A stretch of DNA of 63,938 nt, counting the filler, from Vezdaea acicularis (Eukaryota), in the NCBI GenBank assembly GCA_026025075.1. It is 3 parts of 3 records of this genome, joined end to end, with 100 filler letters (N's around TTAATTAATTAA, not from the genome) between each part and the next. Parts side by side here need not be neighbours in the genome. Positions count along the whole stretch, not along the records: positions 28,938 to 57,767 come from JAPEUI010000169.1; 2 more parts are not named here. One strand, given 5' to 3'. The translations under genes were made by a program, and so were the position numbers. The notes under the pieces were generated by a model. The model ran no database searches. It had not been told where the DNA came from and was given only the letters and a program-made list of their open reading frames with translations. Below, piece after piece: positions 42,294 to 53,574 of this stretch. Numbering within the stretch: the stretch's first letter is position 1; the number at the start of each line of letters is the position of its first letter.

Positions 42294-43949
<1,656 letters not shown>

Positions 43950-47089: not shown

Positions 47090-49876
47090 ATGACTGCCTC
47101 CGATACATCGACGCAGAGTCGAAGTACGGCTGTGCTTGCCGTGACAGCAGTGGTCGTTGCTGTTTCATTCCTTTCTGTATCGTTACGACTTGTAACGCGT
47201 ATTGGTATTGTCCATCGGTTCTCCTGGGATGACGTCTTCATTGTACCGGCATGGGTATGCTTTCGCCTGCAGTGCTTGCACAGCAATTTCTGACATTGTT
47301 CTAGCTGATCGCATTTGGACTATCGTTCTCAATATGCTATGGGACGTCGCGGGGACTTGGAAAACATGAAGTGGATATACCGATAGAATGGGAAGGTTCC
47401 CTAAAGAGATCGGAGTATGCGTTCAGCGTCTTATATGCAGGTACCCGTCTCCGCAGATTGTGTCACCATGCTAATCGACACCAGAACCCTGCCCTCATGG
47501 CGACAAAGACATCCATCCTAATATTCTACCTCAACCAACTCGCCAAGACCGCCAGAGTATTTAGATGGTGCTCATTCGCGACGCTCATTGTGGTGAACGC
47601 TGCCGGTGTAGCTTTGACATTGCTAAATATCTTTCAATGCCGCCCCATTGGAGCAGTATTCGCAAACCCGCTCCCCGATTCTGCAAAATGTGTCGATATT
47701 GTCGGCCTCTACCTCGCCTCCGCCCCAGTCAACATCATTACCGATCTTGCTATATTGTTTCTACCCATGCCAATTCTCACAAGCCTTAGACTGCCAAAGA
47801 AGCAAAAGACCATATTAGTGTTTACTTTTGGTAGGCGCTCACTAAGGGAATGCTCCGACTTCAACTAATGATCTTACCAAGCTTTGGGTGGCTTCGTCAC
47901 CATTGTTGATGTTGTGCGAATTGCATACCTTCAGCAAGCAGCCCTCCAACGACTTACGGACTACGGCACGGGAACAAAACAAGGCTCAAGGATTGCAGGT
48001 GGAAGTGACTTTCCGTGTATGTCTTCTCTCGTCCATACCATCGTGGATACTAACAATCATAGGGTACGCGTCCCTTTCATTCATGTGGACGGCTGTAGAA
48101 GTCAACGTTGGTATTGTGTGTGCCTGTATCCCAACATTGAAACCTCTTGTTTCGCGGGTAATGCCGAGTATGCTTCATGATCGGATGAGTAACCACATTG
48201 GCTCGCTCCCGATCGCGTCAAGAGCTACTGAACGGACAGACCAGCCTCTAAATGGCAGAGCTCGGATATCATCATCTTCCGAGGCGCAAGGCGAAAAAGC
48301 TTCTCCCTCCAGCGAGCCATACACTCGTGGGGGCGATATGGACATGATAGACTTCTTGACCACTCCCGAAACAGCGGAGTCTGCCGTTAGAAATCACTCG
48401 AGCACCACAGCAGCGACACGCCAGACACACCAGCAAGAAACTTTCTTCGACTTTGTCGATATGCAAAACCGAAAGTCCATGGTCAAAATGACGACACGAG
48501 AGGCCTTAGTGCCGTTAGCCCTTGTCACGATACTCTTCTTCCTCTGGGGTTTCGCGTATGGCCTTTTAGACGTTCTCAATTCGCAGTTTCAACTCGTAGT
48601 TAAGATGAGTGCAGGTCAATCAACGGCTTTGCACAGTTCCTATTACGCCGGCTACTTTGTGGCTTCTCTCACATTTGCCAGGGCCATCTTCCGGGCGTGG
48701 GGCTTCAAAGCTACGTTCATAACCGGCTTGTGTGTGTACGGCTGTGGTACCCTTATCTTCTGGCCCTCTTCAGTCCTGACGTCCTTCCCCGCTTTCCTGG
48801 TATCCAATCTGATAGTGGGAATGGGGCTTGGCACTCTCGAAGTCGCCGCCAACCCTTTCATCGCGCTCTGCGGGCCAGCTCAATACGCCGAGGTGCGGCT
48901 CCTCGCATCACAAGGCGTCCAAGCTATTGCCACCGTCGTCTCGCCCATCCTTGCCAAGAGGGTCCTCTTCAAAAGTGTCCTCAATGCACCTTCCCTCATC
49001 GATGTGCAATGGGCATACCTCGGCATCGCGCTCTTTGTCGTCCTCCTCGCTGTCGCCTTCCACTATCTTCCACTACCCGAAGCCTCAGACAATGACCTCG
49101 AGGACGAGCGGTACTAAAACTATTCCGTCAATTCAAGGCCAGTCTTTGGAGCACCCGTGATCTTCATCACACTGGCCCTCGGCGTCTTCTCGCAATTCTG
49201 CTATGTCGGCAGCCAGGAAGGAATCTCCATCGCTTTCCAGCCCTACGCCCAATCCATCCGGCCCGGAACCTCATCCACCACAGCCTTCAACTATCAGGCC
49301 ATAGGCCACTCCGCTTTCGCCATCAGCCGCTTCCTAACCGCCGCTCTATGCCTCCTCGTCCTCCCCCGCTCCGCCCTACTCGTCTCCTACATCGGCTCGA
49401 TCATCACCTCGGCCCTCCTCATCCGCCTCAAAGGCAACGCCGGCATCGCCCTCCTCGTCCTCGCCGCCTTCTTCGAAGCCCCCATCTTCCCCATCATCTT
49501 CGCCTTGTGCCTGCGCGGCCTCGGCCGCCATACCAAGTCCGCTTCCGCTTTCCTAACTGCCTGCGTCAGCGGCGGCGCTATTGTTCCTGCTATCATGCTC
49601 CCCGTCTCGAGCGCGGGCCGTATCCCCACCGCTATGGCTGTCCCCCTCGCCTTTTTCGCCGCGGGGCTCTTGTTCCCGCTTTATCTCCTACTCGTCCCCG
49701 CCGCGAAGGCGCAGGTGGATCCTGTCCTACTCTTTGCGAGAAACGGGAGGGGGGGCAGGCCAGGTCGGCCTGTTAAGCGGCAGAGCGATGTGTGGAAGCG
49801 CGAGAAGGCCGCGAGTGTGGGCAGGGAGGAACCTACAGTTGAACATATCGAGGGTGCGGCGAGCGCAGGCGCGTAG
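47090..49876 (+). CDS. Fusion of a PTH11-like (fungal rhodopsin-type) 7-TM domain with a FucP-type MFS sugar transporter; in-frame TAA at 49115-49117 (possible pseudogene allele)
   Basis: LRLVTR..WDD, G.GLGKH, KTSILIFY, FQCRPI, NIITDLAILFLPMP, WTAVEVNVGIVCACIPTLKPL, then in the same exon LFFLWGFAYGLLDVLN, LEVAANPFI; after the TAA, same frame, FSQFCYVGSQE, PIFPIIFA, SGGAIVP. Confidence 0.85.
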
Positions 49877-50738: not shown

Positions 50739-53574
50739 TTACCGCGCAGTGCCCAGTCGTTGTTCTTCGCTCTCGATCAAGCTTGGAGGTGATGGGCTAG
50801 AAGCACCTGTCTTCTCGTCCCGACGAGCTCTCGAACCGGGGCGTGGGCTAGAGACGCGTGACGAGTTCACCACTTGGCTCAGGCCGGTCCCTGATGTGCT
50901 TGCCTCAAGCCCCATAGGAGCGAGAGGAGTGGCCGAGTTATGCTGACTAGAGTATCTTAGATGGTCAGACTCCGGCCGATCTGAGAATGGGTTGTTGCTG
51001 AAGTCGCGACTACTCCAGCTCGCACGATGCACTCGACCCCCCCATGGAACAGTCGTGTAGGACATCATGCTGTTCCCGCCAATACTGTTACTCCGACTTG
51101 CGCGCGCTGAGCCAGGATGGAAAGAGAGCTTCGATGCATTCGGGTTACCCAGTTCACTGACCAAATCTGGATCTTCATCCTCGATCTTAGGACATCTACG
51201 GACAGATGAGACGTTAAAGTATGGCTCAACGGGAGCCGCTGGAGCTGCTGGTGGTGGTGGCGGTAGATCGGCCGCAGCTTGAGCGACATGGGTGAGGTAC
51301 TTCCCGCGAGCTTTGACCAGCTTTTCAGGTTTAAATTCCGTGCGGTTTCGCGTGATTGACATATAGCTGGAGATTGCTCCCACCGCAATCGCGACCATCA
51401 GAGCAATTGTGAGCACGGACTGTATGACGATTATGACGATACCAATTGCAGTAGTCGTGATGCGGCCGATGTTGAACCGTACATCAAATGCGGCAGAAAG
51501 AGCTGTTGTGGTTACTTTACTGAAGCCGAGGAGGTAAACCATAATAGCGTTCAGTCGTGCCCCTTCGAAAGGCTTCATTTTGATGGTGAATATTAGGGCA
51601 ATTATCTCAACAATTAACAGGCCAAAGACCTGAATCATTGGATGGCCAATTGCTCCACCATAAAGGCAAGCTCGTACGAACTCGTATACAATCCAGAGAG
51701 CAAAAAACCACCATCGAGTACGTCTAAATCGGGCGGCCAACCATCCGAACTTCTTTATATAGATTTCGTCTTCATGGACAGTCATCCGCGAGGGATCGTG
51801 GTCGACGTAGTAGATTCTGAACCAGGGGAGAGAAGCGACGAAGGTTTTATCGCCCTGCTTTTCAACATGCTGACTCTCTCGTGATACAGAGAACCAGGGA
51901 AGATGCTTCAAAAGCTTCTTTCCTTCAAAGTTGAGGCGATCTGGATCAGACTGATAATGGCCGAATCTGAGCCGATAGAAGCACGCGTACCCAGCCATCC
52001 CGATCATGCTCACGAAGAAAGCCAGGAACACAATTACGGCGACTGCTGTGACTCCAGCAGAGCCCTTTGAGGAGAGCTGGTAAGTCGACAAGAGCATCAT
52101 CATGAAAAATCCAATCAGACAGGTTCGAAGTACCGCAAGTAGTATATAACCTCGCCAATGAGAGCGGAAATAGGTGAGACGATCTGATCTGATGAACTTG
52201 AACCGGCTGAGTGCTTCGAGGGCGACTTTGAAGGCTACAACGCTGACGATGACGATCGAAAGCACAACCAGAAACCAAAGTAATCCAGTCATGAATGCAT
52301 TCGATGATGGTATGCTTTCTTCGGATAAGACGCCGCCAAATCCCGACCAGTTGCCAGGTAAGGGCATACCGGGCTTGACGGGCGTTCCATACCAATCGTA
52401 TCCGTCAGTCTTGTTGATCAAAGATCTCTTGCTCAGCGCACTTTCCAAGCTTCGTGAAGCAATTCGGATTGGAGAATCTACCGCGGTCTCCCTTCGGAAT
52501 ATAGACATGAGCGACCGACTATAGATCCCGCGAAGCGAATAACCTCCACCTAAGCTATTCCCAATGGTTGCAGCGTCTCCAACGGAACTGGTATTTCCCC
52601 GGTTACTTCCTAGGAACTGGTTGATGGAGTTTTGCATACTTTCGGTATATATCATCCCACCAGCCCATGCATAGTTGCTCCAGAATGCCGCGAGGACGCT
52701 CGGCCAATTGAGTGAAAGAGTCCCAGTAAAGAAGATGTGTTGGAAGACGGAGAATACGACGAACACTGACAAGGAGTGAGCGTAATGGCTACGCATGGTG
52801 GGAATGTGATCTCCATAAACAGCAGTAGCGAAGGAAGCCACGATGGCGACGACTGTGAAGATCCCCAGGATACTACCCACAGCCTCGGGGTGTGAGAATG
52901 TGGCCCCATTTGTCATCACCGTTGAGTAACAACCAATCTCAGATTGCGTTGAATTGGCAAAAATGCGTAGGATGGCTTCGCCTTCAAAGTCGGGAATTCC
53001 AAGCGCTATTGGAGGTATACCCGCTACATCTACCGGTGCAACGGGAATAATGCCATTGGCTTCGATTGGGACCGATCTGTTCATAGGGCACAGACTTGCG
53101 ATGTTCGCGTTACAGGGGTCGAAAGTCAGGTCGAACCTACTCTCTCCGTCTAAGAGTACGTTAGCATTTCAGAAAGGAGGGTAGAGGTAGAGTTCTGCGC
53201 ACAGGCATAAACCCCGATAAACACTACAGGACGAATTAGCTTCGAGCGTGAAGGCGTTAGATTTTAGAGCACATACTCATCAACGACTCATTACGGACAT
53301 TCGTATTCCCCTGCATGTGGAATAGGACCGTCATATTATCCTTGTAGTAGGCCGCGTCAAACCGAGTGACATTGATGAGGCTAGATCCCAAGCAATCGCC
53401 GAAATTACCGGTATACAGAGCCGGCTTTCTCGAGTCTGGCACATATGCCGAGTTACCATCGCCATCCTGTATCTGAATAAACGTCTGGTTGCCTTTCGCT
53501 ATCGAAGGTTGAACGAGGGTGCCCAAAGAGAAAAGAAAGACCAAAAAGGTTCCGAACGAAGGAAATCTCGCCAT
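50739..53574 (-). CDS. FLC/TRP-like flavin-carrier or calcium-channel family protein (ML-like domain + TRP domain), 3 exons
   Basis: Signal peptide; PALYTGNFGDC, FDAAYYKDNMTV, 21-nt middle exon (FIGVYA), FDPC, IPDFEGEAILRIF, LSLNWPSVLAAFWSN, KFGWLAARFRRTRWWF, many TM helices. Confidence 0.88.

Follow-up and report, generated by a model that had tools for sequence, protein, structure and literature searches.

A conserved fungal fusion of a PTH11-like seven-helix domain and a FucP-family permease, with a premature stop in the assembled Vezdaea acicularis copy

Does one gene of the fungus Vezdaea acicularis encode a receptor-like domain and a sugar-permease-like domain in a single chain, and does the assembled copy still do so? 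The gene in question lies at 47090-49876 on the + strand of a 63,938-nt stretch of assembly GCA_026025075.1 (here called the window, meaning the whole stretch), in the part taken from JAPEUI010000169.1. A first-pass annotation of the sequence described one open frame of about 19 transmembrane (TM) helices over 47090-49876, in which a TAA at 49115-49117 had been read through. The answer proposed here is held with high confidence and differs in that respect: the locus represents a conserved polypeptide of about 860 amino acids (aa), composed of a seven-helix (7-TM) domain, a linker, and a 12-helix major facilitator superfamily (MFS) domain, and the copy in the window has a stop that is private to this assembly.

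The junction between the two domains can be read directly from the DNA. A single stop-free + strand frame, 47846..49117, holds both peptides quoted in the first-pass annotation, WTAVEVNVGIVCACIPTLKPL and LFFLWGFAYGLLDVLN, and the last receptor helix, the linker, and the first permease helix lie in one uninterrupted exon, as had been claimed. The open reading frame (ORF) that follows, 49118..49876, is in the same frame. The parts of the gene that carry the argument are as follows.

48063..49876, + strand: exon 5, with TM7, the linker, the whole MFS domain, the C-tail, and the terminal TAG; broken by the TAA at 49115 (from the ORFs and the FucP alignment)
48140..48496, + strand: cytoplasmic linker of 119 aa (from hydropathy and composition)
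48497..49678, + strand: FucP-family (FHS) MFS permease domain of 12 helices (from 3o7q, TIGR00885, and Foldseek)
49115..49117, + strand: premature TAA at residue 611 of the 863-codon model, in the central cytoplasmic loop that joins MFS helices 6 and 7

The same architecture recurs in many other fungi. A query consisting of the junction plus the permease gave 2036 matches at E ≤1e-5 among 8000 scored candidates, and all of the best 120, which are 655-929 aa long, contain both PF20684 and PF07690; identity among these is 46-59%, except for one relative (P0001) at 98%. The 350-aa junction exon, compared with 1.84 billion cluster representatives (50% identity), has 2878 matches at E ≤1e-3 and 169 at ≤1e-30. 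Domains were scanned in the 54 representatives of at least 700 aa among 150 matches listed: 45 have both domains, six have only PF20684 (with the MFS half matched by phmmer), and two have only MFS_1. The check suggested by the first-pass annotation, whether orthologues keep both halves, is answered positively by these two sets, 120/120 best matches listed and 45/54 long representatives. The remaining representative (P0243, 784 aa) is odd in having an N-terminal part of the Aa_trans family (PF01490), then the end of PF20684 and the beginning of the linker and MFS domain, which could reflect a merged gene call or a different fusion.

Metagenomic loci give a view of the junction in unspliced DNA. 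The junction stretch is without a stop in 24 of 25 such loci, and the remaining one (L020) has three stops, probably because its match joins frames. In three loci (L016, L017, and L022), a single ORF that starts with Met covers the entire fused protein, with 979, 870, and 913 aa, respectively; these ORFs are intron-less, so the fusion there needs no splicing assumption.

Carriers of the fusion include more than 100 named species and belong to the Lecanoromycetes, Dothideomycetes, Eurotiomycetes, Leotiomycetes, and Sordariomycetes, plus Tremellales. Many are lichen-forming Lecanoromycetes; others are Polychaeton, Pseudogymnoascus, Tricladium, Microsporum, Penicillium, Chaetomium, Niveomyces, Neurospora, Podospora, Fusarium, Purpureocillium, and Diaporthe, among others. 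The family had been placed in Pezizomycotina, a confinement that does not hold, as the fusion is also present beyond Ascomycota in basidiomycete yeasts, namely in Saitozyma podzolica (P0288, 918 aa) and in a metagenome-assembled genome (MAG) of Tremellales sp. (P0155, 854 aa). Names in public databases are automatic, such as "L-fucose permease", "Rhodopsin domain-containing protein", and "MFS general substrate transporter", and the homologue lists confirm that, as the first-pass annotation says, similar proteins exist among automatically annotated fungal sequences. Standalone FucP-like proteins of 455-515 aa are found in Mycena, Pholiota, Ramaria, and Drechslerella. A tree built from 19 MFS domains separates the five standalone ones from the 14 fused ones; the Tremellales pair has no resolved place among the ascomycete sequences, which leaves both ancient origin and transfer compatible with the tree. 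From the sequences compared, the fusion is real and widely conserved across fungi.

The permease half is related to FucP of Escherichia coli, as first proposed. The phmmer match to E. coli FucP (3o7q) has an E-value of 5.7e-42 across FucP residues 22-429, and TIGR00885, the fucP model, is matched by both halves of the domain in the window, with 108.9 and 65.7 bits. The description "FucP-type" is correct at the level of the family, but not as an equivalog: for the intact relatives, the TIGR00885 score is 173.2 bits (P0001) or 168.2 bits (P0002), against a cut-off of 280.4. By these scores the permease is a relative within the FHS family and not an L-fucose permease equivalog. For PF07690 (MFS_1), the N-half alone scores 33.3 bits against a gathering cut-off of 33.4 and the C-half alone has no match; among whole orthologues, 47/54 are within E 1e-5, and the majority of these exceed 33.4 bits. 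The orthologue P0002 was modelled with AlphaFold from 33 sequences; the model has seven helices, the linker, then 6 + 6 helices, with a mean predicted local distance difference test score (pLDDT) of 72.5 and a predicted template-modelling score (pTM) of 0.68. Foldseek with the full-length orthologue model returns only MFS transporters, with FucP at ranks 1-2 and template-modelling scores of 0.78-0.80 on the target.

Two acidic residues of FucP have been connected with proton coupling and substrate recognition, Asp46 and Glu135, in the available sections of PMC3824880, which cites Dang et al. Both have equivalents in the window.

48569..48571, + strand: GAC, the equivalent of FucP Asp46, kept (from the FucP alignment)
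48839..48841, + strand: GAA, the equivalent of FucP Glu135, kept (from the FucP alignment)

The family is less uniform at the first of these positions, defined as the alignment A3 column of P0002 residue 425. Among 52 fused proteins picked by hand from the homologue lists, the Asp46 equivalent is kept in 22 and replaced in 30 (by N, S, G, F, and others), with N in Sordariomycetes, Microsporum, and Pseudogymnoascus, S in Teloschistales and Lasallia, and G in Tremellales. The Glu135 equivalent is kept in 49/52, and the position of Asn162 is Gln in 47/52. Of the five standalone homologues, four have Asp. By this pattern, many fused members would not be proton symporters; the loss of the Asp46 equivalent with Glu135 kept is the one sequence-level hint toward a sensing role. 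At 48893-48901 (RLL), both the window and P0001 have Leu at the position of FucP Asn156, where 34/52 have Asn (RLN) and nine others have Leu.

The N-terminal half was called PTH11-like in the first-pass annotation, and the profile searches agree. PF20684 (Fung_rhodopsin) matches exons 2-3 (47305-47829, with intron 2 read through) with 107.5 bits and an E-value of 9.7e-31, against a gathering cut-off of 27, and matches the last helix in exon 5 with 31.4 bits (E 1.7e-07). Support from profile hidden Markov models, which had been named as a check, is thus far beyond chance for both domains. In orthologues the PF20684 match is full-length (profile positions 1-237), with E-values in the 1e-58 class. 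Orthologue models have seven long helices and the hydropathy peaks of the window agree, though TM3 is below the threshold used. A Cys pair in an outside loop is invariant in the family alignments A2 and A3. The N-terminus ahead of helix 1 is only about 10 aa; exon 1 (55 aa) has no Pfam match, and no CFEM domain was found there or among the Pfam domains of the homologues scanned. An N-out, C-in orientation of the 7-TM part is suggested by an Arg-rich loop that follows helix 1 and by a KPL..R segment that follows helix 7. Such an orientation matches the cytoplasmic N-terminus of the MFS domain, and a total of 19 helices is therefore topologically consistent. Identity to seven orthologues is 47-71% for the 7-TM domain and 41-64% for the MFS domain, so conservation of the former is no lower than that of the latter.

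Structure comparison places the 7-TM domain among G-protein-coupled receptors (GPCRs) at the level of the fold. Folded alone (L022, with a 55-row alignment), the domain reaches a pLDDT of 90.3 and a pTM of 0.88. Foldseek matches of this model to the PDB are weak (best E 1.3e-3, template-modelling score about 0.5), and almost all are GPCRs. In a second structure search, independent of Foldseek, the pheromone receptor Ste2 (7ad3_B) is first, with Z 17.1 and a root-mean-square deviation of 4.1 over 250 residues, followed by designed GPCR-like folds, TAS2R14, an adiponectin receptor, microbial rhodopsins, and a large number of class A receptors at Z 12-15.7. In that search a Z of about 13 is common for helical bundles, so only the Ste2 match is clearly above background. 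The models indicate a GPCR-type fold, a result that says nothing on coupling.

Between the two domains lies a hydrophilic linker that is rich in Ser, Thr, and Arg; its length, first estimated as about 125 aa, is 119 aa as measured. In the P0002 model the orthologous linker (residues 293-391) has pLDDT <35, and linker identity to orthologues is 18-40%. Two short motifs stand out.

48350..48373, + strand: linker motif 1, DFLTTPET; family pattern [DEQN]-F-[LMI]-[TS]-[TS]-P-[DE]
48440..48463, + strand: linker motif 2, TFFDFVDM; family pattern F-[DG]-F-V-N-[ML]; just ahead of MFS helix 1

By alignment columns, motif 1 has F in 38/52 and P in 47/52 family members, and the central F of motif 2 is present in 50/52. 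Outside the linker, motif 1 occurs 0 times in 26,549 residues (35 sequences with a pattern-delimited linker). The full motif 2 is absent from the five standalone homologues compared, of which Drechslerella has just an NFVQL remnant. The linker of the family is about 100-130 aa long and disordered, with the two conserved short motifs FLTTP[DE] and F[DG]FVN[ML].

The second part of the question concerns the copy in the window, in which splicing does not restore an uninterrupted frame. As assembled, the product would end after 7 + 6 helices. An intron over the TAA was considered and rejected, as every in-frame GT/GC..AG pair of at least 40 nt near 49115 removes conserved helices, including helix 7. 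The tight GT..AG pair 49111-49137 was also rejected: at 27 nt it is too short, and it would cut the SVNS stretch, which is conserved in orthologues.

Comparison with related DNA points to a change of one letter. Logan contigs from four DNA runs were aligned to the region (DNA only), and in 4/4 of these related runs 49115 is C, not T, giving the codon CAA or CAG (Gln). None of the four is the source of the assembly itself, because the best shares 0.77 of sampled words. Run X2 has two contigs at the site, one of which (219 nt) differs from the window by one letter; from the X2 counts at 49115 and 49117, that letter is T>C at 49115. The 98% identical relative P0001 also has Gln at the stop position. 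The frame continues for at least 54 codons past the junction match in 24/24 evaluable metagenomic loci (of 25), whereas that of the window stops after three. After the TAA the frame is still open and nearly identical (98%) to P0001, with no frameshift. Since relatives read Gln there and the sequence beyond remains open, the stop is private to this assembly, and the copy in the window differs by a single C-to-T change, CAA to TAA, in the central loop of the MFS domain. The change is either a base error in the assembly or a nonsense allele of very recent date, at roughly even odds; in either case the premature stop is something that annotators should flag. In the metagenomic loci L001 and L004-L007, the open frame ends 54-55 codons past the junction match, just beyond a CYVG.QE motif, which suggests an extra intron in MFS helix 7/8 that has no counterpart in the window.

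The remainder of the gene follows a five-exon model of 863 codons, whose spliced product aligns without gaps to orthologues at all four junctions. Both ends are present in the sequence: the ATG at 47090, with no other in-frame ATG between it and the preceding stop, and the terminal TAG at 49874-49876. The features upstream of exon 5 are listed below.

47090..47254, + strand: exon 1, with the start codon, the short outside N-terminus, TM1, and the start of TM2 (GTATGC donor at 47255; gapless junction)
47255..47304, + strand: intron 1, 50 nt, GT..AG, with a CTGAC branch-like site (read from the sequence; the junction fits orthologues)
47305..47436, + strand: exon 2, ending in ...YAFSVLY (PF20684 match on 47305-47829, E 9.7e-31; gapless junction)
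47437..47484, + strand: intron 2, 48 nt, phase 0; donor GC (GCAGGT...CACCAG), branch-like site CTAAT
47485..47830, + strand: exon 3, from NPALMATKTS... to TM5 and into TM6, with the conserved outside-loop Cys pair
47831..47881, + strand: intron 3, 51 nt, GTAGGC..AAG (from the sequence; gapless junction)
47882..48016, + strand: exon 4, with TM6 (DVVRIAYLQ) and the loop preceding TM7 (from the sequence; gapless junction)
48017..48062, + strand: intron 4, 46 nt, GTATGT..CTAAC..TAG (from the sequence; gapless junction)

Retention of intron 2 would be in-frame and would add 16 aa inside a conserved helix region. In a comparison of 25 related loci, 10 have an intron with a GT donor at the exact codon boundary of intron 2 and three have no intron there; the other 12 either escaped the search pattern or do not include the region. 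Over 47328-47478, an X3 contig is identical to the window, GC donor included, and the GC donor is therefore not private to the V. acicularis assembly.

If the fused protein is to be accepted, several other readings of the same evidence have to be considered. That two neighbouring genes have been read as one is refuted at the DNA level and retains almost no probability: the stretch from one domain to the other is stop-free in the window and in 24/25 related loci, three relatives are single intron-less ORFs, unspliced metagenome ORF calls span both domains, and the fusion is kept in over 100 named species. The first-pass annotation had stated that the fusion is not a gene-model artefact, and in this it was right. 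It is improbable, although less so, that an internal promoter or start in the big exon also gives a standalone permease and that the fusion is one isoform of two. Such a product could begin at the Met in ...KSMVKM..., which directly precedes helix 1 and hardly varies in alignment A2, and standalone proteins of 455-515 aa resembling FucP exist in Agaricomycetes and Drechslerella; however, the linker motifs upstream of that Met are conserved, which argues that the fused reading is under selection, and a metagenomic ORF of about 460-560 aa may be just a piece of a fused gene, as the P0156 and P0214 clusters hold members of 957 and 918 aa. A pseudogene, with the TAA real and fixed in a decaying relic of a conserved fusion gene, comes somewhat short of an even chance. 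It would account for the in-frame TAA followed by A at 49115-49118, for the lack of a Met soon after the stop to restart the C-half, and for the GC donor in intron 2. The sequence past the stop, however, is open and 98% identical to P0001 without a frameshift, the strain nearest the window in run X2 has CAA, and the GC donor is common to the population with the Gln codon (X3); any inactivation is for these reasons very recent at most, and may be a base-calling error.

For the conserved fused protein itself, the architecture and the loss of the Asp46 equivalent make it possible to propose, tentatively, a hard-wired nutrient sensor-transporter, or "transceptor", the reading also put forward in the first-pass annotation. 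In such a protein the MFS domain would bind a sugar and in some lineages, probably those with Asp kept, transport it; the conformational state of the MFS domain could be passed in cis to the GPCR-like domain, or the reverse, and the linker motifs might be regulatory or adaptor sites. A more specific form of this proposal is rather unlikely as it stands: the FucP-like domain, with the proton-coupling Asp lost in most lineages, would now be mainly a sugar-binding sensor, its inward/outward switching would be read directly by the attached GPCR-fold domain, and the linker motifs would recruit signalling or endocytic partners. If true, this would define a previously undescribed class of nutrient receptor, kept as an orthologue by most filamentous ascomycetes (lichen fungi among them) and by some Tremellales. 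It is unlikely, by a lesser degree, that the 7-TM domain is an accessory module for folding, sorting, or oligomerisation of the permease or for lipid or partner binding, so that the protein would be a transporter extended at its N-terminus. According to the available text of PMC13308352, coupling to G proteins has been demonstrated for only a minority of PF20684 proteins; the 7-TM part is unusually conserved for a fast-evolving family, as expected of a structural partner, and the outside N-terminus of about 10 aa leaves no CFEM or other ligand-binding ectodomain. The fold is nonetheless nearest to true GPCRs, with Ste2 first at Z 17.1, the long disordered linker with conserved motifs looks regulatory and not structural, and the loss of the proton-coupling Asp in most lineages is a poor fit to a plain active symporter.

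A number of observations weigh against a conserved fused protein with a sensing role, and they concern both the family and the copy in the window. The split between fused and standalone MFS domains is weakly supported in the tree (69/90). The permease is below every curated NCBIfam cut-off, and "sugar" is deduced from the family; the 52 fused proteins in which the coupling residues were counted are not a random sample. The likeness to GPCRs is at the level of the fold, with 7-15% identity, and G-protein coupling of PF20684 proteins is documented for few members in the sections of PMC13308352 available. In the window, the TAA at 49115 breaks the frame and the copy may make no working protein, and the donor of intron 2 is a non-canonical GC.

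Nothing in the surroundings of the gene bears on its function. An 809-aa open frame at 50739-53168 on the - strand matches Pfam TRP (E 9.5e-119) and TRP_N/ML-like (E 3.6e-20); this is a gene for an Flc/TRP-like membrane channel, converging on the fusion gene. At about 42448-43900 on the + strand, two or three frames hold ORFs with translations that resemble an intron-split NADP-specific glutamate dehydrogenase.

The full-text literature search, which covered neither subscription journals nor the supplementary GPCR gene lists that may include members, found no description of a PF20684-MFS fusion; it likewise found no functional study, in keeping with the first-pass annotation, which knew of none. 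The available portions of a 2026 GPCR review (PMC13308352) and of a Peltigera preprint make no mention of it, and in the latter portion "fusion" and "fused" occur 0 times. Cross-talk of fungal sugar-sensing GPCRs and transceptors is openly speculated about in the accessible part of PMC12892961. A GPCR-fold domain and a sugar-permease domain in one chain would join what have been two separate stories of fungal sugar sensing. As the fusion is conserved from lichens to Neurospora, Podospora, and Fusarium, the question is testable by ordinary genetics in model fungi. The protein is also a rare case of a slow-evolving, one-to-one PTH11-like protein, and thus a good entry point to what the PF20684 fold does.

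Each part of the fusion resembles a known system, and the combination differs from all of them. E. coli FucP (3o7q/3o7p) has the same 12 helices, is matched at E 5.7e-42, and is the top Foldseek match, and the copy in the window has its Asp46 and Glu135 equivalents; however, the fusion family is below the equivalog cut-off, with Asn162 changed to Gln in 47/52 and Asp46 replaced in 30/52. Bacterial FucP proteins differ further, in that none returned by the searches made has an N-terminal 7-TM domain and linker as the fusion does. Snf3 and Rgt2 are yeast transporter-like nutrient sensors, and the loss of a coupling residue in many fusion members recalls non-transporting sensors. Transceptors, such as Gap1 and Pho84 of yeast and CDT-1/2 and RCO-3 of Neurospora crassa, likewise use a transporter fold for nutrient sensing, according to the available text of PMC3824880 and PMC12892961; in contrast to the fusion, they signal via their own tails or separate partners, and none described in that text is fused to a GPCR-fold domain.

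On the receptor side, the fusion shares with PTH11 and PTH11-like proteins (GPCR class XIV) a strong PF20684 match, seven helices, the outside-loop Cys pair, and the GPCR-type fold. It differs from PTH11 proper (the Magnaporthe oryzae Pth11 type) in that CFEM was not found in the fusion family and in that its C-tail runs into a transporter. The PTH11-like family is described as fast-evolving in the sections of PMC13308352 available, whereas the 7-TM domain of the fusion is kept 1:1 across classes and is neither fast-evolving nor lineage-expanded. Ste2, the class D pheromone receptor of Saccharomyces cerevisiae (7ad3), comes closest to the 7-TM domain in structure, with a match over 250 of 298 residues; at 7% identity it has no sequence-level relationship, and the likeness is one of fold only, which is no evidence on ligand or G-protein coupling. 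Plant AtRGS1 and oomycete GPCR-PIPK are 7-TM proteins fused to an effector domain. The fungal class VI 7TM-RGS receptors, a class listed in the accessible part of PMC13308352, are also alike in having a 7-TM domain followed by a cytoplasm-facing module in cis. In these 7-TM-effector proteins, however, the module is a soluble enzyme or regulator, whereas in the fusion it is a 12-helix membrane transporter.

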